Shown here one piece after another: positions 10,566-27,536 of a stretch of 35,154 bases of DNA; the first letter of the stretch is position 1, and each line of letters starts with the position of its first letter. Made by a program: the position numbers and the translations under genes. Below the pieces are notes generated by a model, which was not told the DNA's origin, made no database searches, and was given only the letters and a program-made list of their open reading frames with translations. Source of the DNA: a virus (lineage: Duplodnaviria; Heunggongvirae; Uroviricota; Caudoviricetes); the IMG/VR virus record IMGVR_UViG_2913152634_000005, one strand, 5' to 3'.

Positions 10566-11329
10566 TACCTAATTTTTAACCTCAACTGATTAAATTTCGG
10601 TCAAACATCCGTTAGTGAAATACAAGTTGCTATGTAAATACACACCTGCAACTTGTATTACCAACCAAGTTTAGCTCCCGATATTACTCATTTCCATTAT
10701 TTTTCCTTGGCTAGCGCTTCGTCGAACATTTTTACGTGTTATCTTCAAGGTAGATGCTCGCAGAAATGATAGTACCACCGATTCGGCGTTGACCATAAGC
10801 CAGCAGAACAAGATCCCCTTGGCCGGTTGTATTCGTTACACCACCAAATGCATAGAATGCCTTGTTATCAGTATCTTGCTTACTCGGCTACCCACAAGAT
10901 TGTGGGGATAGCATTTGAGCAACGTAGCCTATCGTCACAGAAGCCCCTACTACAAACATCATATTACTGGACGCTATACGCGCTCCTGACATTCAGATAG
11001 ACACAGCAACGCAAATCATTTGCAGCAGACCAGAGCTTTTACTTTCCACAATAACTGGCACAAATACGAATTTCCCGACCCTCAGTAGAGAGCACAAGCG
11101 CATCTTTTCCAATATTCTGTTTCCTATGAAAAATACAGAATGTCAGCTCGCGAAATTTACTAGTATTCAGATACTTTTCTAATCGAACCTCTCAGTTTAA
11201 TCGTCATCATTACCTTATAGCTCTGCATTTCGAGTTCCTACAGTAGAGTAAGTGTTCAGTAACCCAAGTTCAGGAGAAAGGAAACGATCATGCCATTTTC
11301 AGTCCCAAATAATGCTTTCCATTTCCTTT

Positions 11330-11480
11330 CTTTTCAGGTGGTGTTTTAAATAAAAACATAAAGTTACGGCGAAGAAGAACGGAAACGCCTTAAACCGGAA
11401 AATTTCCATAAATAGAGAAAAACTGCGCGCCTTCCGCCCCGTAACGCTCCGGATCACCGGAAAGGACCCGCTCAAAAAAA
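11330..11480. other. cos-like DNA packaging site of the integrated element (cosB/cosQ conserved, cosN divergent)
   Basis: About 150 bp with roughly 85-90% identity to the prophage cos region at 27122-27270; cosN position reads GGGCGGAAGGCG versus GGGCGGCGACCT. Confidence 0.7.
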
Positions 11481-11513
11481 GCGGCCACTGACGTGATTGT
11501 TTATGTTCCATGA

Positions 11514-11545
11514 GCGACAAAACCGCCCGGAGGCGGTTTCACATA
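11514..11545 (-). terminator. rho-independent terminator after the gpI-like gene
   Basis: minus-strand CCGCC-tccg-GGCGG stem followed by TTTTG. Confidence 0.5.
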
Positions 11546-11557
11546 AAACATTCTGCA

Positions 11558-12205
11558 TCAGCGACCAATCACCACGATTTCACCACCATCACCTTCATCA
11601 GCTGTGCTGATCTCCTGAGATACCACACGTGACCCCACGCGCATTTCACCGTACAGAACAGGCAGGACATTGCCCTGGGCAACCATGTTATCCAGTGACG
11701 AGAAATACGTGTTCTGCTTACCGTTATCCGTTGTCTGTGTACGGGGAGTTCTGGCTTTCGGTGCCAGCATCTGAGCCACACCGCCAAGGATCATACTGGC
11801 CCCCGCACTATACATTCCTGTAATTGCTGCCGCTCCTAGCCAACCAGCGGGGTTCCACCACGCCACCGCAATCAGCGCCGCCCCCAGCACGGTCTGAAAC
11901 ACACCGCCACTTTTAGCGCCAGCAAGACGCGGTACGATGTGGATCACAGCACCATTCGCCAGCGGCTCATTAAGACGGGCTGATAATTCATTTTCGCCTG
12001 CATCCCGCCCGGCAATCCGTACCTGATACCAACCGTCGCTCAGTTTCTGACGAAACGACGGTAGCTGTGTGGACAGAGCTCGGATGGCTTCAGCCCCCGT
12101 TTTTACACGAAGGTCGATGCGGCGGCCGAATCGTTGCAAATCCCCGTAAAGGCAGATTCGTGCCATGCCCGATGACGCCAGAGGGAGTGTGTGCGTAGTT
12201 GCCAT
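11558..12205 (-). CDS. I: lambda gpI-like tail assembly protein
   Basis: 215 aa; MATTHTLPLASSGMARICLYGDLQRFGRRIDLRVKTG...NTYFSSLDNMVAQGNVLPVLYGEMRVGSRVVSQEISTADEGDGG closely matches lambda gpI as remembered. Confidence 0.8.
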   Translation of the reverse strand: MATTHTLPLASSGMARICLYGDLQRFGRRIDLRVKTGAEAIRALSTQLPSFRQKLSDGWYQVRIAGRDAGENELSARLNEPLANGAVIHIVPRLAGAKSGGVFQTVLGAALIAVAWWNPAGWLGAAAITGMYSAGASMILGGVAQMLAPKARTPRTQTTDNGKQNTYFSSLDNMVAQGNVLPVLYGEMRVGSRVVSQEISTADEGDGGEIVVIGR

Positions 12206-12245
12206 TTGTCGGTATACCTCTCTCGTTTGCTCTGTTGTTCAGAAA

Positions 12246-12629
12246 TTAGCAGATCAACTTATAGCGTCCCTTCCGAGCATTGCGGCGTACACGTTCAATC
12301 TTGAGGCATAGCGCCGCATCTGGCTTTTTTGGGACTGGTACACGGCAATATTCAGAAGCGCGAGGAATATTATTTATCCAGTCAATCACTTCGCTTAAAT
12401 ACCAGGCCTTACGCCCTTCCGTAACCTGCACACGCTCCGGGAACTCTCCACGGGCCTCAAGGTTTAGCAGTGTACGACGACTCAGGGTTGTAAGTTCCAT
12501 CACCTGATTCATATCAACAAGACGCTCGCTTAAACGCATTTTGTCAGCGATAGCTTTTAATTCCTCTACAGCTGGATTTGGGTACATAATTTCGGCAATT
12601 GGCTTAAGGTCATTGTAATGATTCTGCAT
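12246..12629 (-). CDS. AlpA/MerR-like winged-HTH DNA-binding protein (function uncertain; candidate packaging-specificity factor)
   Basis: 127 aa; HTH segment MELTTLSRRTLLNLEARGEFPERVQVTEGRKAWYLSEVIDWI; strong RBS aaggggga. Confidence 0.55.
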   Translation of the reverse strand: MQNHYNDLKPIAEIMYPNPAVEELKAIADKMRLSERLVDMNQVMELTTLSRRTLLNLEARGEFPERVQVTEGRKAWYLSEVIDWINNIPRASEYCRVPVPKKPDAALCLKIERVRRNARKGRYKLIC

Positions 12630-12640
12630 TGTATCCCCCT

Positions 12641-12982
12641 TTACACACGAGCCAGCGGCTGAACAGAAATACCTGAGCCAACAAACGCTGCAACCTTTAC
12701 TGACAGTTCTTTTACAGACTCAGGCCAGTTCAGAGCATCAACATTTAAGACACCTGTCTTATAGACCTGAGCCTGTGTTTTTTTCGCGGTGTCGATTTGT
12801 ACAGCGGATACATAAACCGCTTTACCTACGCTCGTACCATCCCATACCACCAGTGCACCTGTTGCATCTTCCTGCATCAGTGGCGTAAATGCAGGAATTA
12901 CCCCTTTATTAGCTGAAAATATCCCCAGCGTAGTAACCAGTGCTTCAGTGCCAGCCATGAGTTCAGTGTAATGAGTAGCCAT
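12641..12982 (-). CDS. head decoration protein, distant lambda D homologue
   Basis: 113 aa; TPLM...LVVWDGTS.GKAV...Y.KTG...WPE...AF.GSGIS pattern parallels lambda gpD; translationally coupled to the capsid gene. Confidence 0.6.
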   Translation of the reverse strand: MATHYTELMAGTEALVTTLGIFSANKGVIPAFTPLMQEDATGALVVWDGTSVGKAVYVSAVQIDTAKKTQAQVYKTGVLNVDALNWPESVKELSVKVAAFVGSGISVQPLARV

Positions 12983-12991
12983 TGCTCCCCC

Positions 12992-14038
12992 TTAGCCAAT
13001 GCGAACGGTAACAAAACGATTGATGCGGGCCGGTATTGGCTGTGGTGCTGAATGTGTCTGCACATATTCAATAGCCGGATCACCAGGCACAATATAGTTT
13101 TTCGGTGCAAGTTCGGCTTTAGTCAGCCCCATTCGGATTAGCTCCGGATCCTGAATACCGCCATAGGCGACAATCCCCTGAAGAGCCGTATTGCCAAGCA
13201 CCATCAAATCAGGATCAAGGAAATGTTTTTCAGTTCCGTCCTCGTCGGTATAACGCCCGCTGTAAACAACAATCGCAACATCGCCCATATACCCTTTAAA
13301 ACTCACCGAATCACCAAGGTCTTTAAGGGCCGTTTCCAGTTCGGAATTAGAACCACGACGGGTATCCAGAGCCTCTTTTATCGCTCTGAATGAACGGTAT
13401 TTCTTCCATACATTACCGCCCATAATGATGATATTAGTGACGCCCTCACTAAATTCTGCGTAGTTCTCAATATCATCATTTGGATCAAAAGTTTCTTTAT
13501 CCTTACCTGACCACTCAGCACCGCCAGACTGAGTGATGATATTTTGTGGTTTAATATTCCAGTCCAGCTCATAACGTTCAATACCATCGCCCTCAATGAT
13601 ATTTTTCCCCGTTGTGATTGCCTGAACGGCAAGCCATTCAATACGTGCACGAATAGCTTTAGCTTGATTTACAATCGCCTGTTTAACTTTAATATTACGC
13701 GCCCCAAAAGCATTGTATTGCTCAGGTGATACACCAGCAGGGCGCACAGCTAACTTATTTGGATCAATGCTGCTTTTCGGCTTCATATAGCCTGGACGAA
13801 TTGTTTTTGATTCGTACCCTTCGTCACGTGAAACTTTACTACCCACCATAGGAGAACAAAACGCTGCAATTGGGATATTTGGATCGTCGATTGTATCAAG
13901 AATAATATCGCGCGATTCAAACATTACCGAGCGAGTAAAAAACAAACGGGTAAACAACGCATTTAGTTGTTTTTGTACATCTACAGCATTAACCACCTGT
14001 ACAAGCTGGGTAGGCGAATATAAATCAACCATACGCAT
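12992..14038 (-). CDS. major capsid protein, lambda E-like, encoded by the integrated element
   Basis: Conserved blocks ITQSGGAEWSGKDKETFDPNDDIE, DTRRGSNSELETALKDLG, YMGDVAIVVYSG, LGNT shared with lambda gpE at roughly half identity; start at ATG 14036-38 or 14030-32. Confidence 0.82.
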   Translation of the reverse strand: MRMVDLYSPTQLVQVVNAVDVQKQLNALFTRLFFTRSVMFESRDIILDTIDDPNIPIAAFCSPMVGSKVSRDEGYESKTIRPGYMKPKSSIDPNKLAVRPAGVSPEQYNAFGARNIKVKQAIVNQAKAIRARIEWLAVQAITTGKNIIEGDGIERYELDWNIKPQNIITQSGGAEWSGKDKETFDPNDDIENYAEFSEGVTNIIIMGGNVWKKYRSFRAIKEALDTRRGSNSELETALKDLGDSVSFKGYMGDVAIVVYSGRYTDEDGTEKHFLDPDLMVLGNTALQGIVAYGGIQDPELIRMGLTKAELAPKNYIVPGDPAIEYVQTHSAPQPIPARINRFVTVRIG

Positions 14039-14249
14039 CCTCTTTGCATTCATTAAAAATAATTGTGGATATATGCTATCACCGATATTTGTCATGCGAA
14101 TACATGCAACCGAGTGCAATGTTGTATAAAGTTTTGGGATGACAACTTCAGCGCGGATAATTAGTGTTAATATCTTCACTCCCTTTGGTCGGGATTTATG
14201 TAGCATGCCGGAAAATTTATTTTTTTCCGGCCTTTTTTATTGGCAATAT

Positions 14250-14699
14250 TTAAAACGGAATATCATCTCCCCATTGCTCATTATCTCCCACTGGTGGATG
14301 GCTTCCTTGCTGATCTGCCTGTTGTTTTGCTCTGTTCAGTGCGTCAGTAGCCTGCCCCTGTTGGCCTTTTTTGCCGCCCGGTCGCACCGTTCGCGCACTG
14401 ATTACGCTGTCTGCGATAACCTGCCAGCCCTGCCGCGTTTCACCGTTCTGTCCAGTCCACTGACTCACCTGCATGTTACCCGCCACGCTCAGGAGTTCGC
14501 CTTTGTGATGCTTTGCCAGCGCGTCGGCTTGTCTGCCAAACGCCAGAACAGATAACCACATCGTCGCCTGACCGTCATCCGATTGGCTGCAGGGCAGTGA
14601 TACCGCCATACGCGCCAGCGTCATGGGGGTGCCCTTGCTGGTCTGTTTTGTCTGCGGGGCGTCCACCAGCCGCCCGTAAGCTGCTATTTGCGCCGTCAT
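14250..14699 (-). CDS. ssb: single-stranded DNA-binding protein
   Basis: 149 aa; OB-fold SSB pattern, Gly/Gln-rich linker and C-terminal acidic tail DDIPF. Confidence 0.85.
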   Translation of the reverse strand: MTAQIAAYGRLVDAPQTKQTSKGTPMTLARMAVSLPCSQSDDGQATMWLSVLAFGRQADALAKHHKGELLSVAGNMQVSQWTGQNGETRQGWQVIADSVISARTVRPGGKKGQQGQATDALNRAKQQADQQGSHPPVGDNEQWGDDIPF

Positions 14700-14953
14700 G
14701 CTGCCTGCTCTCCGGACTTAATATTGATGGTTGTCACTTCCTCCGCTTCGGCAATCTCCCGTTCGGTCAGCGTGGCAAAGTTTGCAGCCGCCGTTGTCAT
14801 GAATGCGCTTATCAGTTCGGGATGTGCTTTCGCGTATCCTTCCCCGGCGTTGCGGTCTATTGCCTTAATCGCCACCCTTAGCCAGTGTTCAGCCATATCA
14901 AGGGCGCGGTAATGTGGCTTTATATGTTTGTTCAGTTTTCCTGATGTGTGCAT
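14696..14953 (-). CDS. hypothetical protein, translationally coupled to ssb
   Basis: 85-aa ORF; stop overlaps the ssb start. Confidence 0.4.
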   Translation of the reverse strand: MHTSGKLNKHIKPHYRALDMAEHWLRVAIKAIDRNAGEGYAKAHPELISAFMTTAAANFATLTEREIAEAEEVTTINIKSGEQAA

Positions 14954-14989
14954 TTTTATTTTTACCCCCTCGTTTAAAAAGTTTTTTGT

Positions 14990-15240
14990 GCACCACCACC
15001 TTGTCTACCTTGTCTACCTGATTAGTTATCAGGCCAGTAATGGCGCGGGTTTCAGGGAGGTAGACAGCCCCAAATAGCTGTCTACCTCATCTCTACCCGT
15101 CTCCTTACCTGTCTACAAAAATGGGTAGATAAGGTAGATAACAGGTAGACAGTGAAAAATAGTTATCTACCTGCATTAATACATTGAAATAAAAGTATTT
15201 TCTTTCAGTCAGGTAGACAAGGTAGATAACCATTGCCATT
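14990..15240. repeat. iteron array, putative replication origin of the element
   Basis: At least ten copies of GGTAGACA/GGTAGATA and their complements TGTCTACC in both orientations, directly downstream of the helicase gene. Confidence 0.7.
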
Positions 15241-15242
15241 TT

Positions 15243-16334
15243 TTATAAAAACGCATCGCAATCATCAGTAGTCGTTGCGTTGGTCTGCGTGACTCCCTTA
15301 ACTTTTCGCGTAATATATTCATATCCGTAAACTTTCGCCGCTGACCTCATAGCCTTTCCGAACTCATTCACGCTCAAACATTTCCCCTTTCCTGTGTATG
15401 CCATGAAGGCCATATAGACACGGTAAAGGCTGTTTCTGGTCGTGTACTTCACGGAGTCACCACCACCGCCCATCATTAGCCCACGAGCTTCCTCCAGAAA
15501 CTCAAGCGCCGCGCAAAGCTCAACAACTGGATCCGTTTGCTGCTTTATTGCCAGAGCTTCATCACCGTCACGCTGTTCCAGTAGTAAAGCCCTTGCCTTT
15601 TCAGGGTCAGCAAAGTTAGCCAGCAAGCGGCGGATAATTACGGGGATTTCTGCCGCTATCTTTTCCGGTAATTCCTTGTCTTTTTCGTCCTCCCTTACAA
15701 TGTTGTCGAACCGGAAAATCACCCGACGGCGTGACACACCTCCGGCCCGTTCGGTAAAGATCATCGGGTCGTTATTGGTTGCCAGTACCACCGCCCTTAT
15801 TATCGTCGTGAATCGCTTCTCATATTTCGGATTGATTTCAACGGGATCGCCTCCCGTGATTTTCTTGATGCCCGTGCCTTCCCCCGTATATTTCGGCTGA
15901 TCGGCAAGGACGATAAGACGACTCCCGACAACCTGCGCGCGCCCTCCTGCATCATCGAGTGATGTCATCTCTGCGCTTACGGTGTTCTGTTTGCCTGCAA
16001 GCAGGGTGGCAATATGGGTAAATGTACTCTTACCGCTTCCCCCGTCTCCGGTGGCCTCAATGAACATCTGCCAGTCGTAGCGGTTCGCCATAATCATGTA
16101 TAACGCGGCACATATACGCATCATCTTGCGCGGGTCTTTTCCTGCAGCATGTTCAAGCCATTTATGGAAATTTGGCGCATTATCGCGGATGTTTTCCCCT
16201 GCTACTGGTGGCGTGTACTCAATACCATTGTGCGTGGTGCTCCAGTGCTCCGGCGAGTGCGGAGAAAATTCCCCCGTTTTCAGATTAAGCACACCATTAG
16301 TGAACGGTAGCAAATCACCGGACGGCTCCCCCAT
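15243..16334 (-). CDS. replicative helicase domain protein (P4-alpha/D5-type, SF3)
   Basis: 363 aa; Walker A GDGGSGKST, Walker B LIVLADQP; FTNGVLNLKTGEF motif typical of the D5_N/primase linker. Confidence 0.8.
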   Translation of the reverse strand: MGEPSGDLLPFTNGVLNLKTGEFSPHSPEHWSTTHNGIEYTPPVAGENIRDNAPNFHKWLEHAAGKDPRKMMRICAALYMIMANRYDWQMFIEATGDGGSGKSTFTHIATLLAGKQNTVSAEMTSLDDAGGRAQVVGSRLIVLADQPKYTGEGTGIKKITGGDPVEINPKYEKRFTTIIRAVVLATNNDPMIFTERAGGVSRRRVIFRFDNIVREDEKDKELPEKIAAEIPVIIRRLLANFADPEKARALLLEQRDGDEALAIKQQTDPVVELCAALEFLEEARGLMMGGGGDSVKYTTRNSLYRVYMAFMAYTGKGKCLSVNEFGKAMRSAAKVYGYEYITRKVKGVTQTNATTTDDCDAFL

Positions 16335-16993
16335 GGGGCGGCAATAACTTTTAACGCTTCCACGGCGTTATTGATTACGCGTTTGCTGAACGTGGCCCTG
16401 TGCTCTGAATAGATCGCCACCATTTCGCGGCTCAGCTCCATTGTGCTGACCGGACACCATACCCCGCCGCGCCATACGTGGACGATTTCACTTTCTGCAT
16501 GAACACAAACACCATCAAAGCGATCGGCAAGTAGTTGTGCCCGCTCACTGTCTGCCATCTGTGAAAGTTGCGCCTTTTGCTTCGTCGGAAGATTAAGCAC
16601 CAGGCTTTCCCCACGCTCGCATTCCTCTTTGAGTCGCGGCAACTGGTCGGATAAATCCACAGGGCTGGTGTCAGTAATCCCCGCGTATTCGTGTACGGTC
16701 TTCACTCCAGCCACAGCCAGTAACGTAACAATCTGCGTCATGCTGTGCTCTGTGATATGTCCTGCGCGGTAAACACGCACACACTGACGATCTTCATCAA
16801 TGATCCGGTAATCGGTGATGTTTTTCAGTTGCTCATCAGCCAGCACGACAGGCGGCACATCGTCGGCGGCAATATGTTTACCCGCCCATTCCTGCCACTC
16901 TTTCGCATGGCTCCACGCATCACTACCTGCAAAGATGATTACCTCTGTCAGTCTGTCGCGTGGCTGTTTTTTTAAGTTCGGTGCCAGTTTCAT
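16280..16993 (-). CDS. primase-like replication protein, N-terminal module (overlaps the helicase ORF by 55 nt in another frame)
   Basis: 237-aa ORF upstream of the helicase; the overlap suggests one primase-helicase gene split by a frameshift. Confidence 0.5.
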   Translation of the reverse strand: MKLAPNLKKQPRDRLTEVIIFAGSDAWSHAKEWQEWAGKHIAADDVPPVVLADEQLKNITDYRIIDEDRQCVRVYRAGHITEHSMTQIVTLLAVAGVKTVHEYAGITDTSPVDLSDQLPRLKEECERGESLVLNLPTKQKAQLSQMADSERAQLLADRFDGVCVHAESEIVHVWRGGVWCPVSTMELSREMVAIYSEHRATFSKRVINNAVEALKVIAAPWGSRPVICYRSLMVCLI

Positions 16994-17289
16994 TTTTTGC
17001 CCCTGAATGCGTTAATCATGCTTTTCATTTTCTGGATGTTTCCCCGCGCTTTTTCCCTGCTGGTGGGCTTACTGCGGGGTGCGGCATATACCAGGGAAAA
17101 ATCACGCCGGAACTGATAAACAGGCATCACGCAGTCATAGCTATACCCCTCACGGCGGTAAGTGATGCGCCGTTCTGCCACGCCTTTAATCGTTACCGTG
17201 CCGCCGTATTTATCGCGGTAAATATCGCCGTTCATAAATTCAGGCCGAGCGGGGCCGCTGGCAATAAAGCCAGAATTTTTCATTTCCAT
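16990..17289 (-). CDS. hypothetical protein
   Basis: 99-aa ORF, stop overlaps the primase start (ATGA). Confidence 0.4.
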   Translation of the reverse strand: MEMKNSGFIASGPARPEFMNGDIYRDKYGGTVTIKGVAERRITYRREGYSYDCVMPVYQFRRDFSLVYAAPRSKPTSREKARGNIQKMKSMINAFRGKK

Positions 17290-17306
17290 ATTATTTATTC
17301 TTCGAC

Positions 17307-17528
17307 TTAACTCGACTTATTTGATAGCAGGGCACTATTTATTGCGTCATTGAGTTTTTCTGCTGCTTCATCAATAAGTGACAACAGGCCATAAGCAATA
17401 TTTGCATCTTCATTGTCATTTATGCAATCAAGCCACATATTTAATATTGCTTTTGCTGAATTATTTAAAGTTAATGAACTCTCTGCACATGCTAACAATT
17501 TAAAAAAGACTTCTCGTTCTGTATTCAT
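17307..17528 (-). CDS. hypothetical protein
   Basis: 73-aa ORF in a tightly packed leftward operon. Confidence 0.35.
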   Translation of the reverse strand: MNTEREVFFKLLACAESSLTLNNSAKAILNMWLDCINDNEDANIAYGLLSLIDEAAEKLNDAINSALLSNKSS

Positions 17529-17720
17529 TTAATCCCCCACCAGCTTACTTTCTTCCTCAATCAGGAAACTAGCGACACTTCCCGAAAGGCGCGCCAGTAG
17601 GCTCGCCAGCGCGGATATATCAGCATCTGTAATTTTGTTCGGGTATACCTCAAGAAGGCGGCAAATAATCTCTGTTTGGTGCGCACGTTCAGCGGCTTCG
17701 TGTAATGTGATTTCCTGCAT
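17529..17720 (-). CDS. hypothetical protein
   Basis: 63-aa ORF abutting its neighbours. Confidence 0.35.
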   Translation of the reverse strand: MQEITLHEAAERAHQTEIICRLLEVYPNKITDADISALASLLARLSGSVASFLIEEESKLVGD

Positions 17721-17905
17721 TAATGCACCTCTTTTAATTCATACACTGCTGAAATAATGACTTGTGATAAGCCATATTCTGATGATTCGCTTCTCACCGC
17801 AGCAATAGCCGTCTGAACATTAACAGCCTTCACGTTCTGAGCGATACCAATTGTGTGGCCTCGTGGGTTAACAGCTCGGGCAAATACACGGAAGGTTTTA
17901 AGCAC
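17720..17905 (-). CDS. hypothetical protein
   Basis: 61-aa ORF abutting its neighbours. Confidence 0.35.
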   Translation of the reverse strand: MLKTFRVFARAVNPRGHTIGIAQNVKAVNVQTAIAAVRSESSEYGLSQVIISAVYELKEVH

Positions 17906-18161
17906 GGCGCACCTCCTGACGAATACGGGCAGCGAATACCATCACGCAGCCAGTTGGGGATTGCTGGCGGGCTTCCTGTTCGCTGATGGCCTCGATGGTA
18001 ATCACGCGCGGTTGTGCCGTACTCAAGGCGATAAAACGCCAGATGTATTTATTCAGGTTGTGCGAGTTCCGCCCTTGCGGGTGTGTGGTATGATTTCTCA
18101 TAGCTACCTCGATACTGTTGCTATCGTTGGTGGTTAAACGCCCTGTATGTGTTGCGAGCAC
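17898..18161 (-). CDS. hypothetical protein, first gene of the leftward operon
   Basis: 87-aa ORF starting next to the divergent promoter region. Confidence 0.35.
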   Translation of the reverse strand: MLATHTGRLTTNDSNSIEVAMRNHTTHPQGRNSHNLNKYIWRFIALSTAQPRVITIEAISEQEARQQSPTGCVMVFAARIRQEVRRA

Positions 18162-18196
18162 TGCAGGGCGTTGTTCCAGAGCAATAAAACATGATA

Positions 18197-18240
18197 AGGT
18201 GTGTACCTATCAAGAAGCATACTAAGCAATAGGTACATAC
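18197..18240. promoter_or_regulatory. inverted-repeat operator in a divergent promoter region
   Basis: TGTACCTAT (18202-18210) and ATAGGTACA (18229-18237) form a 9-bp inverted repeat immediately upstream of the RHH gene. Confidence 0.45.
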
Positions 18241-18435
18241 ATGTCAACTATCATTCAGCGCGATAAACAGCCGAAAGGTGCTGGTAAGGCACCGGCATTT
18301 CAGATCCGTATCAACCCGGAACTAAAAGAACAAATGGTTAGTGCGGCTGCAAAAGAAGGAATGAGTTTGGCTAATTGGCTTAAAGAACTAGCAAGAGCAG
18401 AACTACGCAAACAAGGTATTGAACCTAGAGGTTAA
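18241..18435 (+). CDS. ribbon-helix-helix DNA-binding protein (repressor or antitoxin-like)
   Basis: 64 aa; beta-strand FQIRINPEL followed by two helices (KEQMVSAAAKEG / MSLANWLKELARAEL), typical of CopG/Arc RHH proteins. Confidence 0.55.
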   Translation: MSTIIQRDKQPKGAGKAPAFQIRINPELKEQMVSAAAKEGMSLANWLKELARAELRKQGIEPRG

Positions 18436-18459
18436 GACTTTTAAAAGGATCTGTGAGAG

Positions 18460-19185
18460 ATGCAAAATCTAAAACGAATAAGTGAATATAATTTAACAGA
18501 CAATCCTATCCCACATTATTTCCCTCATGATAGTAGATTCCTGTCTCTACTTGGGAAATTTTCGTTCCGACTTGAAGATCTAATAGTATTTCACTCATTT
18601 GTTTATCATACATATAACATAAATCTTAAGGAGATACAAAAAATTGCAGATAACACTCCCCAATATAATCCAGACTTATTAGACGATGAAGAGCATGAAA
18701 TGGCCTTGATTTCTCAAGCCAGACATAGAGAGAGGGTTGGTTATTATGATGATCTTAATAGAAAAGCCTCATTTTTTGCCAATGACAGTGTCGTAATTAA
18801 TCTTTGGGCTATTATTGAACAGTTTAGTACCATGGCATACTCTTTGCTAGAAGCAATTATTAAAGAAATACCTGAAAATCAAGTTAAAGTTCCATATACA
18901 TGGGATAAATTAAAAAAGAAATACTTAAGTTATGGTATTGACCTCTCCCAACTTGATTCTTACGATGTCATTAACGAAACTAGGGTTTTAAACAACAAAA
19001 TCAAACACCTTTATATTGTCGATGAAAACCTTGCCTCTTTTCCTTTTTTCAAGGACAAAGAGAACAAGTCATTATTAGGAATGGAATATAGGCTTCAAGA
19101 TTATGTTATTGGAACTCATAAGTTCATCGGGCATCTTTTAGAGGATTGCTCCATAAAATTAGGAAATAAGGCAAACATGATTTAA
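18460..19185 (+). CDS. hypothetical protein, AT-rich cargo gene (candidate toxin or defence effector)
   Basis: 241-aa ORF 24 nt after the RHH gene; no family recognised; visibly AT-rich. Confidence 0.5.
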   Translation: MQNLKRISEYNLTDNPIPHYFPHDSRFLSLLGKFSFRLEDLIVFHSFVYHTYNINLKEIQKIADNTPQYNPDLLDDEEHEMALISQARHRERVGYYDDLNRKASFFANDSVVINLWAIIEQFSTMAYSLLEAIIKEIPENQVKVPYTWDKLKKKYLSYGIDLSQLDSYDVINETRVLNNKIKHLYIVDENLASFPFFKDKENKSLLGMEYRLQDYVIGTHKFIGHLLEDCSIKLGNKANMI

Positions 19186-19189
19186 ATTA

Positions 19190-19222
19190 ATTAGGTAGGT
19201 AATAAACCTACCTAATTGAAAT
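19190..19222. terminator. bidirectional terminator hairpin between convergent genes
   Basis: Perfect palindrome TTAGGTAGGT-aataaa-CCTACCTAA. Confidence 0.55.
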
Positions 19223-19225
19223 GAT

Positions 19226-19459
19226 TTACTTATTTAAGTACCATTCCCCACGAATCCACGCCTGCACCTCCGAAAGGCGATATGCTACGGCAGTGGCACC
19301 TATTTTAATTCGCTTTGGAAACTTTCCTTCTTTCTCTAACTTCCATCGAGTGCTATTAGCAAGAGTAGTTAACTCACGGCATTCTTTCTCACGGATCATT
19401 CGGTCAATGTTAGGAATGTATTCCAGACCCTTTTTATCAACAATTGCCATTTTTTTCAT
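19226..19459 (-). CDS. alpA: AlpA-family excisionase/transcriptional regulator
   Basis: 77 aa; HTH CRELTTLANSTRWKLEKEGKFPKRIKIG; immediately downstream of int. Confidence 0.7.
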   Translation of the reverse strand: MKKMAIVDKKGLEYIPNIDRMIREKECRELTTLANSTRWKLEKEGKFPKRIKIGATAVAYRLSEVQAWIRGEWYLNK

Positions 19460-19460
19460 G

Positions 19461-20573
19461 TTAACCAGCCTTTTGTTTGAGGATTGTCACTTTTGAATCA
19501 GCAGCTGCGATGCTATTGAGATATGTAGTCCAGAGTTCCAGAGCATCCAGTTTTTTAGCCATAAACTTACTCCGGTTGTAAACACCTGCCACGCCAGGTA
19601 GCGCATGGCCTAACAGTTGTTCTACTACATAAAATTCAACACCGAGATCACTTAGATGAGTAGATAGCGTTCTTCTAAGGTCGTGTAGTGACCATTGTTT
19701 TTCATGGCCCAAACGTTTACCGATTTTCCCCCCAATCTTGCTTACGCTTTCTCTAATTCGCAGACTTCCCAGCACATAACCAGTATGTTTTGTCTCTTCG
19801 TGAACATCCGTTACCCACTGTCGTAGAATTTCAGGTACTGGTCTGACGATTTCAACACCAGTTTTTGAGTGATCTTTTGGTACAGTCCAAACCCAACTTT
19901 CGAGATCCCATTCGCTCCATTCTGATAATCGGGCTTCACTCATTCGACATCCAAATACTGTACAAAGCACAAACATTTTTCGCGTGTATTCAGACATTAG
20001 TTTTAAATCAGGCTCGACAAAAATTGCCTTCCAGAGCTGGCCGAGTTCGGCTTCATCCAGAACCCGATCCCGCTTACCTGCAATCTGCCCCACATCACTC
20101 ATGCGCAAATCCTTTAAAGCATCACACGTCGCGTACTGGCGTACCCGACAAAAACGAAGAGCTAATTTAGTGTCAGAAAAAACATACGCCGCCATAACTG
20201 GTGCATTACTTTTAATTCGGTCAAAACAGTCCAGCCATTCATATAGGTGAGTGTCATTTACGGGCAAATGACCGATATAGGGAAAGATATGCTTTCGAAA
20301 TCTGCCAAGCGTTACAGCATGAGTTTTACGACGCACCTTACAGTAATTTTCATACCAGTAATTTAGTGCATCCTCCACTGTGACCGGCTTTAAGCGTTCT
20401 TCAGCCTGAATCTTAATCTGGATACGCGGATCACGTTTGTCAGCCAACCAAGCACGGCACTCGTCGCGCTTTTCCCTTGCCTGTTTGAGTGACATATCAG
20501 GATATTTACCCAACGTTAGCCAGACCGGAGCAGCCCGGCCACCTGCTAACCTGTAGAAGAAAACAAAGCTCAC
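19461..20573 (-). CDS. int: tyrosine integrase (P4-type), catalytic portion; N-terminal arm-binding segment lies in another frame at 20573-20695
   Basis: 370 aa with R...HDLRRT...LLGH...Y tyrosine-recombinase motifs; ORF 20570-20827 encodes the expected N-terminus MAGENKLSDKALKGYLGKPREKQITIADGKGLSIRVSTKGL and stops 1 nt out of frame. Confidence 0.8.
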   Translation of the reverse strand: MSFVFFYRLAGGRAAPVWLTLGKYPDMSLKQAREKRDECRAWLADKRDPRIQIKIQAEERLKPVTVEDALNYWYENYCKVRRKTHAVTLGRFRKHIFPYIGHLPVNDTHLYEWLDCFDRIKSNAPVMAAYVFSDTKLALRFCRVRQYATCDALKDLRMSDVGQIAGKRDRVLDEAELGQLWKAIFVEPDLKLMSEYTRKMFVLCTVFGCRMSEARLSEWSEWDLESWVWTVPKDHSKTGVEIVRPVPEILRQWVTDVHEETKHTGYVLGSLRIRESVSKIGGKIGKRLGHEKQWSLHDLRRTLSTHLSDLGVEFYVVEQLLGHALPGVAGVYNRSKFMAKKLDALELWTTYLNSIAAADSKVTILKQKAG

Positions 20574-20827
20574 AGCCCCTTGGTACTCACACGAATAGAA
20601 AGCCCCTTTCCATCAGCAATGGTGATCTGCTTTTCTCTGGGTTTCCCCAGATATCCTTTAAGTGCTTTGTCGCTCAGTTTGTTCTCGCCAGCCATTTTTA
20701 GCCCCAAAAAGCAATACAAGCTGCAATACAGAGATGATTGCAACACACAGATAACGAGGAAAATCCAGTGAAAGCGCCAGATAAACTTATTCTTTATTAT
20801 CAAAAGATTAAGTGTAAAAACCAGCAA

Positions 20828-21103
20828 CTACACGAAAGCCTCAGAAAGCCATGCTAAGTGCTTCGGCTTGACATATCCCGGCGTAAATTCAGAGGTGGAG
20901 CCGCCACGGGAGCGGATAACCTCACCGGAAACAATCGGCGAAACGTACAGCGCCATGTTTACCAGCCCCGGAATTTGTGAGAGATAGACTTTCTCCGTGG
21001 TGAAGGGATAGCTCTCACGGAAAAAGAGACGCAGAAACAGCGGATCAAACTTAAATTTCTGCTCATTTGCCGCCAGCAGCTGGGCGGTTGTGTACATCGA
21101 CAT
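20828..21103 (-). pseudogene. E: major capsid protein E, 5' fragment (codons 1-84 plus 9 element-derived codons)
   Basis: MSMYTTAQLLAANEQKFKFDPLFLRLFFRESYPFTTEKVYLSQIPGLVNMALYVSPIVSGEVIRSRGGSTSEFTPGYVKPKH matches lambda gpE 1-84, then LAWLSEAFV-stop. Confidence 0.88.
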
Positions 21104-21158: not shown

Positions 21159-21491
21159 TTAAACGATGCTGATTGCCGTTCCGGCAAACGCGGTCCGTTT
21201 TTTCGTCTCGTCGCTGGCAGCATCCGGCCAGAGCACATCCTCATAACGGAACGTGCCGGACTTGTAGAACGTCAGCGTGGTGCTGGTCTGGTCAGCAGCA
21301 ACCGCCAGAATGCCAACAGCAGCACCGTCAGTGGTGCCATCCCACGCAACCAGCTTACGGGTGGAGGTATCCGGCATCAGCGGGGTCATTGCAGGCGTTT
21401 TCGCACTCAATCCGCCGGGCGCGGTTGCGGTATGAGCCGGGTCACTGTTGCCCAGCGGCTGGTAATGGGTAAAGGTTTCTTTGCTCGTCAT
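21159..21491 (-). CDS. D: head decoration protein D
   Basis: [12 protein letters not shown]...[11 protein letters not shown] near-identical to lambda gpD. Confidence 0.92.
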
Positions 21492-27047: not shown

Positions 27048-27119
27048 TGTTCATTCCACGGACAAAAACAGAGAAAGGAAACGACAGAGGCCAAAAAGCT
27101 CGCTTTCAGCACCTGTCGT

Positions 27120-27245
27120 TTCCTTTCTTTTCAGGGGGTATTTTAAATAAAAACACTAAGTTACGACGAAGAAGAACGGAAACGCCTTAAACCGGAAAAT
27201 TTTCATAAATAGCGAAAACCCGCGAGGTCGCCGCCCCGTAGCCTG
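27120..27245. other. prophage cos site (cosB, cosN at 27216-27227, cosQ)
   Basis: Minus strand reads ...CAGGCTACG GGGCGGCGACCT CGCGGGTTTTCGCTATTTATGAAAATTTTCCGGTTTAAGGCG..., the lambda cos as remembered. Confidence 0.85.
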
Positions 27246-27536
27246 CCGGATCGCCGGAAAGGACCCGCAAGCGTTCTGGTTTATTCGCAATGAATTCAAT
27301 GTCTGACAGACCAGCGTCGTGCGACCACGGTCGCACGCTCCTGAATACATGCCCTGTTTCTTCCACCCTCGCACAAGACTGGCGAGCATGAGGGACAAAC
27401 CCGCGAATCATTAGCGCGGTAAAAACCCGGTGTGCATCGTTTTGATTATTCCCGCACACTCGCGCAGAAGGAATTCCCCGTCGGGCTACGGTCATGGTTA
27501 ATGCGGGAATACGGCGACGATACAGCGCATAATGTG

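Follow-up and report, generated by a model that had tools for sequence, protein, structure and literature searches.

A conserved capsid and decoration gene pair in a satellite embedded in the capsid gene of a lambdoid prophage

Introduction

Why should a phage satellite that has interrupted the major capsid gene of its helper bring along a major capsid gene and a head decoration gene of its own? The question is raised by the IMG/VR virus record IMGVR_UViG_2913152634_000005, a stretch of 35,154 nucleotides that we call the window, in which positions 12,641 to 14,038 hold the two genes inside an 11,414-bp phage-inducible chromosomal island (PICI). The window is 100% identical to the Escherichia coli RM14723 chromosome (NZ_CP027103.1; the record position is the window position plus 2,887,126), and nearly all of its relevant genes are on the minus strand. 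The feature is already published down to the exact locus: a 2023 paper reported the satellite, the interruption of the helper capsid gene that it causes and the capsid gene that it carries (Tommasini, Mageeney & Williams, NAR Genom Bioinform 2023; PMC10111431), and a homologous gene pair had been described, deleted and crystallised before that. What we add is an analysis of selection on the pair, its prevalence among genomes, its placement in a satellite-specific lineage, the mosaic look of the capsid protein, the size fit of four element copies, and a comparison of cos sites. We find that the two genes are the conserved capsid and decoration genes of a PICI late zone, intact and arranged as a unit. 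The pair is common, strongly conserved, apparently confined to satellites and has no known phenotype, and entry of its products into particles would bear on how lambdoid satellites exploit or replace the helper head.

A capsid gene followed closely by a decoration gene

The pair and the gene that follows it are:

12992-14032, minus strand: satellite major capsid protein of the lambda gpE family, 346 residues (Pfam PF03864, Phage_cap_E, E=2.7e-41)
12641-12982, minus strand: satellite head decoration protein of the lambda gpD / phage 21 SHP family, 113 residues (Pfam PF02924, HDPD, E=4e-15)
12246-12629, minus strand: AlpA-like helix-turn-helix (HTH) protein, 127 residues, third gene of the cluster (Pfam Phage_AlpA, E=1.3e-8; Protein Data Bank (PDB) entry 8C3T, AlpA, E=1.6e-10)

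The capsid protein scored 142.2 bits against PF03864, where the gathering cut-off is 22.9, in a full-length match over residues 14-345. It aligned end to end with the E protein of the surrounding prophage, once the two halves of that gene were rejoined, at 147 of 349 positions identical (42%, E=8e-86), and the runs shared identically by the two include LDTRRGSNSELETA and GDVAIVVYSG. The decoration protein scored 56.4 bits against PF02924 (cut-off 29.1), had PDB entry 1TD0 as its best structural match (E=6.5e-16) and was 38% identical to the prophage D protein (E=4e-18). The E-like gene precedes the D-like gene, whereas lambda has D before E, and the 9-nt spacer between the genes holds a ribosome-binding site, GGGGGAG. 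A sequence-only reading of the same DNA had described these features, namely a capsid protein that shares conserved blocks with gpE yet is clearly divergent, and a D-like gene coupled downstream in reversed order; both Pfam assignments and both alignments bear it out. It had begun the capsid open reading frame (ORF) at 14038. The ORF is real, but the start at 14032 (MVDLYSP...) is favoured, with AAGAGG 7 nt upstream and the same start chosen by PGAP; 14038, which adds two codons, is less likely.

The HTH gene begins 11 nt after the decoration gene, the spacer containing AGGGGGA, and it is kept in this position in four other loci (L004-L007). The capsid, decoration and HTH genes look like one tight three-gene cluster. 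A consensus scan for an internal promoter of the pair found sites no more numerous than in shuffled sequence.

The pair lies in a satellite that splits the helper capsid gene

The boundaries of the satellite and the prophage head genes next to it are:

9446-20859, minus strand: whole satellite, helper-embedded PICI (HE-PICI) Eco8567.11.E_Phage_cap_E_80, 11,414 bp (published supplement listing, and junctions read directly)
21159-21491, minus strand: prophage head decoration gene D, intact (5 of 110 residues differ from lambda gpD, PDB 7VII chain H, counted on the alignment)
20858-21103, minus strand: 5' fragment of prophage E, codons 1-82, ending at attL (PGAP 'major capsid protein, missing C-terminus')
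8664-9443, minus strand: 3' fragment of prophage E, codons 83-341 and stop, beginning just past attR (PGAP 'major capsid protein, missing N-terminus')

Along the minus strand the prophage order is cos, Nu1, A, W, B, C, D, E codons 1-82, the 11.4-kb block, E codons 83-341, FI, FII, Z, U and a truncated V. The satellite separates codons 82 and 83 of E and has the same orientation as E. At attL the sequence reads GTCAAGCCGAAGCA up to the junction and CTTAGCATGG beyond it, with an AAGCA core at 20859-20863; at attR it reads GTAACCCAAGCA and then TGAGGTGAAT, with the AAGCA core at 9445-9449. Deletion of 9445-20858 in silico gave an uninterrupted E of 341 residues, and precise excision of the satellite would rebuild the helper gene. 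The insertion is a site-specific integration at codon 82 of E, made by the tyrosine integrase of the satellite at the AAGCA core.

This insertion inside helper E, and its shared orientation, had been overlooked in the sequence-only reading, which called the prophage D and E near-identical to lambda. For D this stands, and the gene is intact; E is not intact and comes within 5 of 341 residues of lambda gpE (counted on the alignment) only once its halves are rejoined. That the element might be a fragment of a second ordinary prophage, a possibility raised in the same reading, is ruled out: no portal or protease gene adjoins the element, which has one half of a single E gene on either side. The absence of portal, protease and terminase genes from the element was also called correctly. 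By PGAP, Pfam, PHROGs and tblastn, we found no portal, protease/scaffold, terminase or head-tail connector gene in the satellite, and tblastn with the prophage proteins, together with PGAP, Pfam and PHROGs, found no homologues of Nu1, A, W, B, C, FI, FII, Z or U there.

The satellite belongs to a published helper-embedded type

The 2023 supplement lists CP027103.1/2907985-2896572 with the identity block 'aagca' (PMC10111431), and these coordinates correspond to window 9446-20859. Several observations agree with an HE-PICI. The integrase (int), alpA, primase (pri), single-strand DNA-binding protein (SSB), capsid and decoration genes are on the same strand as E, that is, oriented like the late gene into which the element is inserted. 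AAGCA is present at both junctions, and excision restores the late gene. By pairwise identity, 407 of 411 integrase residues match those of the type element, 11capE, when the intact copy from strain 2015C-4136CT1 is used. Published HE-PICIs have the zones Integration, Bro, Replication and Late; here int and alpA (Integration), primase and SSB (Replication) and the capsid, decoration and K'/I genes (Late) come in that order, but the second zone has Icd-like, HicB-like and unassigned genes, and Pfam and PHROGs showed no Bro-N domain in it. The features described for Gram-negative PICIs (Fillol-Salom et al. 2018) are likewise present: a size of 10-20 kb, int, alpA and pri in one direction, a cos site, and less than a full set of virion genes. 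The satellite is a Gram-negative PICI of the published helper-embedded type 11capE, and its locus was already known.

A P4-like satellite was considered and rejected: no Sid, Psu, Delta or activator families were found with Pfam, PHROGs or PGAP, and the helper context is lambdoid. A P4-type immunity RNA (C4/isrK) was not found in Rfam at the gathering threshold, the sole match being isrC at 6464-6586, which falls within an IS3 element of the prophage. No tRNA genes that might serve as a target were found.

Comparison with known satellites and with lambda

The original 11capE, Eco567.11.E_Phage_cap_E_80 of E. coli NRG857c, is an 11-kb PICI that disrupts a lambda-type capsid gene and carries its own; the configuration was named helper-embedded PICI, and 201 further cases were reported at the same E site (PMC10111431). 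The window satellite resembles it in the site within E, in orientation and in the order of the Integration, Replication and Late zones, and the integrase (99%), capsid (344 of 346 residues, 99%) and decoration (111 of 113, 98%) proteins are nearly identical. The two differ in the identity block, which is 5 bp (AAGCA) here and 10 bp (aacccaagca) in NRG857c, and in cargo: here there are K'/I, a cos with lambda-type cosB, an AbiJ-like gene, and HicB-like and 241-residue genes, whereas NRG857c carries HEPN/DUF262. In addition, the integrase and primase genes are frameshifted here, and the host prophage has lost tail genes and bears nle effector genes.

A more distant relative is EcCICFT073, the model Gram-negative PICI, where capsid gene c1499 is followed by head decoration gene c1500 (PMC6092414). 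We found the same order as in the window, directly after the replication genes, with 55% (capsid) and 54% (decoration) identity, and c1499 is identical to the protein of a crystal structure, PDB entry 3BQW. Both elements are cos-packaged satellites of lambdoid helpers. EcCICFT073, however, is integrated in the chromosome and not in a prophage gene, its next gene after the decoration gene is unrelated to that of the window satellite, and it uses RppA with a non-lambda cosB; the window satellite has a lambda-like cosB and no Rpp. With lambda as helper, all DNA packaged in the presence of EcCICFT073 was phage-sized (PMC6092414; the Dokland review, PMC6893505, agrees). Deletion of c1499 or c1500 did not restore lambda plaques and left island transfer unchanged (PMC6092414; PMC6739421; PMC6893505), and the interference maps to RppA (PMC6739421).

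Compared with lambda gpE and gpD (PDB 7VI9, 7VII), the satellite proteins are of the same Pfam families and align over their full lengths at 42% and 38% identity. Unlike the lambda genes, they stand in reversed order, are not accompanied by B, C, Nu3, A or Nu1, and belong to a satellite lineage that is not present in any sequenced phage searched. The satellite is also like SaPIbov5, whose Ccm is a satellite homologue of the helper major capsid protein in an element with no portal or terminase (PMC6893505). Ccm, which has no partner decoration gene, gives small capsids and strong interference, and the E. coli relative, the EcCICFT073 pair, has neither effect. Finally, encoding its own capsid protein is a trait that the window satellite shares with the capsid-forming PICIs (cf-PICIs). 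The cf-PICIs, however, have a complete head set of portal, protease, terminase and connectors (bioRxiv 10.1101/2022.09.08.507074), whereas the window satellite has shell and decoration genes only.

Selection, prevalence and ancestry of the pair

The ratio of nonsynonymous to synonymous substitution rates (dN/dS) was estimated by the Nei-Gojobori method among four loci, of which three are embedded elements and the fourth is a chromosomal PICI lying between cspD and clpS. In well-diverged pairs the capsid gene gave 0.06-0.09 and the decoration gene 0.07-0.17; the values of 0.17 and 0.52 obtained for the window versus L004 come from only 8 and 5 differences, respectively. The HTH gene gave 0.03-0.06 in comparisons with enough differences, and the ORFs of the four loci have no internal stops. 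By these substitution patterns, the capsid/decoration pair is under strong purifying selection, functional and not decaying.

Of 5,426 complete E. coli genomes, 395 (about 7%) carry a full-length copy at no less than about 83% nucleotide identity, and the same pair occurs in one chromosomally integrated, non-embedded PICI. Among 50,697 phage records, the best match to the capsid protein was lambda, at 42%. Since none of these records holds a capsid protein more than 42% identical, we reject recent capture of the pair from a helper phage, and the comparison points to a lineage specific to satellites.

Along its length the capsid protein is not evenly related to its two reference homologues. Identity to lambda-type E and to c1499 is 28% and 51% in alignment columns 1-165, 62% and 48% in columns 166-262, and 43% and 67% in columns 263-353. 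On this alignment the protein looks mosaic, the middle third being nearer lambda-type E and both ends nearer c1499, a pattern that suggests past recombination with a helper E gene. The N-terminal part of lambda E includes the N-arm and the E-loop that bind gpD. Identity of only 28% in this part would explain why the element has a decoration protein of its own.

The cos site and the size of the element

The satellite and the prophage each have a cos site:

11290-11480, minus strand: satellite cos, with lambda-like cosQ and cosB (R3, R2, R1) and a variant cosN GGGCGGAAGGCG (aligned with the prophage cos, 27090-27300, and other PICI cos sites)
27225-27236, minus strand: prophage cosN GGGCGGCGACCT (read from the sequence)

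The cosN of the satellite thus reads GGGCGGAAGGCG against GGGCGGCGACCT in the prophage, and another embedded PICI, L006, has GGGCGTCAGGCG. In two further PICIs, L004 and L005, the cosN is that of lambda, but cosB differs and TerS-like and 93-residue Rpp-like genes of their own are present. Using tblastn with the downstream EcCICFT073 proteins and with the TerS and 93-residue proteins of L004 and L005, we found no TerS or Rpp in the window satellite. The 127-residue HTH protein was considered as an Rpp-like packaging redirector and rejected: it has no similarity to EcCICFT073 c1501, and the PDB search gave only AlpA (8C3T) and no Rpp entries.

Four copies of the element amount to 45,656 bp (4 x 11,414 bp), or 94% of the lambda genome length, a length suited to packaging as multimers. 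The size may be kept close to one quarter of a helper genome to allow packaging in this form. Other members of the E-site group measure 11.1-11.4 kb.

What the pair may contribute

The account that we favour, while putting it at somewhat short of an even chance, is that the matched pair contributes to full-size, helper-built heads as an auxiliary or backup shell supply, without redirecting head size. In the embedded state, the pair and the downstream HTH gene would be transcribed by read-through of the helper late operon, as proposed, together with a 'backup copy' role, in PMC10111431. The two proteins would form a matched shell subunit and cementing trimer and, either by themselves or together with helper gpE and gpD, could build normal full-size T=7 heads on the helper portal, scaffold and protease. 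Helper terminase would then fill these heads, starting from the satellite cos, with tandem arrays of about four copies (4 x 11.4 kb = 45.7 kb). If these steps hold, the pair would therefore act as an auxiliary or backup supply of shell protein, useful while helper E is still interrupted.

Several points weigh against this account. Identity of 42% gives no assurance that the satellite capsid protein would assemble together with lambda gpE, Nu3 or B. Because the pair is dispensable in the laboratory for EcCICFT073, any contribution that it makes must be conditional or small. Nor can the pair serve in general to back up an interrupted helper E, since non-embedded PICIs carry it too. The RM14723 copy itself, with frameshifts in int and pri and with most prophage tail genes lost, allows no inference on activity in that strain.

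A role in interference or defence is unlikely, though it is the alternative that survives best. Here the capsid protein would poison lambdoid shells, or would escape or decoy capsid-sensing immunity, and the decoration protein would stabilise only lattices of the satellite type. PICIs generally hinder their helpers and carry defence cargo, here an AbiJ-like gene, and the central third of the capsid protein, 62% identical to lambda E, would permit mixed capsomers; strong purifying selection with no transfer phenotype would also fit a role against particular phages only. Nevertheless, loss of c1499 or c1500 did not relieve the interference with lambda, which maps to RppA (PMC6092414; PMC6739421), and neither protein matches any PADLOC model.

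It is doubtful that the satellite capsid and decoration proteins go as far as to form the shell of satellite transducing particles on the helper portal, scaffold and terminase, at least while helper E is interrupted. Were they to do so, the satellite would represent a stage intermediate between classical PICIs, which steal capsids, and capsid-forming PICIs, and an embedded satellite would get first access to heads.

Capsid-size redirection was the function proposed in the sequence-only reading, with shells sized for a genome of about 11 kb built from the element's capsid protein. In this scheme small shells would form on the helper portal, scaffold and terminase and hold one or two 11.4-kb copies, as with SaPIbov5 Ccm. 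There is precedent in SaPIbov5, whose capsid homologue Ccm makes small capsids, and in PmCI172, which forms small capsids and has a capsid homologue of its own (PMC6893505; PMC6092414), and both the lack of portal, protease and terminase genes and the purifying selection on the pair agree with such a scheme. It is not supported, however, because EcCICFT073, the nearest tested relative (55%/54% identity, same gene order), packaged only phage-sized DNA with lambda (PMC6092414) and neither interference nor transfer changed when either gene was deleted (PMC6092414; PMC6739421). In addition, a lambda head has room for almost exactly four copies of the satellite (94%), which is what packaging of multimers would lead one to expect. 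We consider small-capsid redirection very unlikely.

That the pair is a functionless passenger, a late-gene fragment captured by imprecise recombination and now decaying, is hardly credible. In its favour, helper late genes do get captured into the late zones of PICIs (PMC10111431), this satellite has both a K'/I block that was captured and an I-like pseudogene that has decayed, and the EcCICFT073 pair showed no phenotype. Against it, dN/dS is 0.06-0.17 in well-diverged comparisons with ORFs intact at all loci examined, order and spacing are kept from 11capE to EcCICFT073 at 55% identity, none of the phage records searched holds a close copy that could be the donor, and 21 of 29 reference PICIs have a capsid gene (PMC10111431).

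Other satellite genes and the host prophage

The remaining genes of the satellite are:

19461-20695, minus strand: tyrosine integrase with one frameshift (Pfam Phage_integrase and Arm-DNA-bind_3; PGAP 'frameshifted')
19226-19459, minus strand: alpA, excisionase/activator family (PHROG 2790, E=1.2e-17; an HTH regulator in PGAP)
18241-19185, plus strand: HicB/Arc-like gene of 64 residues and a 241-residue protein that matched no family (both between alpA and the Icd-like gene)
15243-16993, minus strand: primase/D5-type helicase with one frameshift (Pfam DUF5906, D5_N and Pox_D5; PGAP 'frameshifted')
14250-14699, minus strand: single-strand DNA-binding protein (Pfam SSB, E=5e-15)
12103-12246, minus strand: K remnant preceding the I gene (PGAP partial phage tail protein)
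11558-12205, minus strand: captured lambda tail assembly gene I, intact (Pfam Lambda_tail_I, E=1e-23; PGAP tail assembly protein)
9804-10565, plus strand: AbiJ-like abortive-infection gene, cargo at the 3' end of the satellite (Pfam Abi_C, E=1.7e-23; PADLOC AbiJ, E=2.4e-22)

Between the plus-strand pair and the primase lie the Icd-like gene, small ORFs and a DUF4222 gene. Strain 2015C-4136CT1 has the integrase and primase in intact form, and its element is otherwise essentially identical (a 12,203-bp match to a 12,201-bp query). Because the frameshifts are absent there, those of RM14723 are either very recent mutations or errors of sequencing or assembly.

The two cargo spots on the opposite strand (9804-10565 and 18241-19185) are occupied in related elements by DUF2971, TIR and HEPN/DUF262 genes; exchange of genes at both is as expected for defence hot spots. 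A second member of the I family, a decayed pseudogene at about 10738-11100 on the minus strand, lies some 500 bp downstream of I, is 31% identical to it and has in-frame stops. The I gene, the K remnant and this pseudogene are what one would expect if late genes of helpers had been captured, and had decayed, more than once. The K, I and J genes are absent from the host prophage itself.

The host prophage is degraded in the region 1-8660. An IS3 at 5405-6618 truncates V, and the 3' part of V is gone, as are the tail genes up to and including J; the RM14723 composite is probably no longer able to make particles by itself. Beyond the IS3 lie lom, tail-fibre genes and the type III effector genes nleB2 and nleC, with NleD encoded just outside the window.

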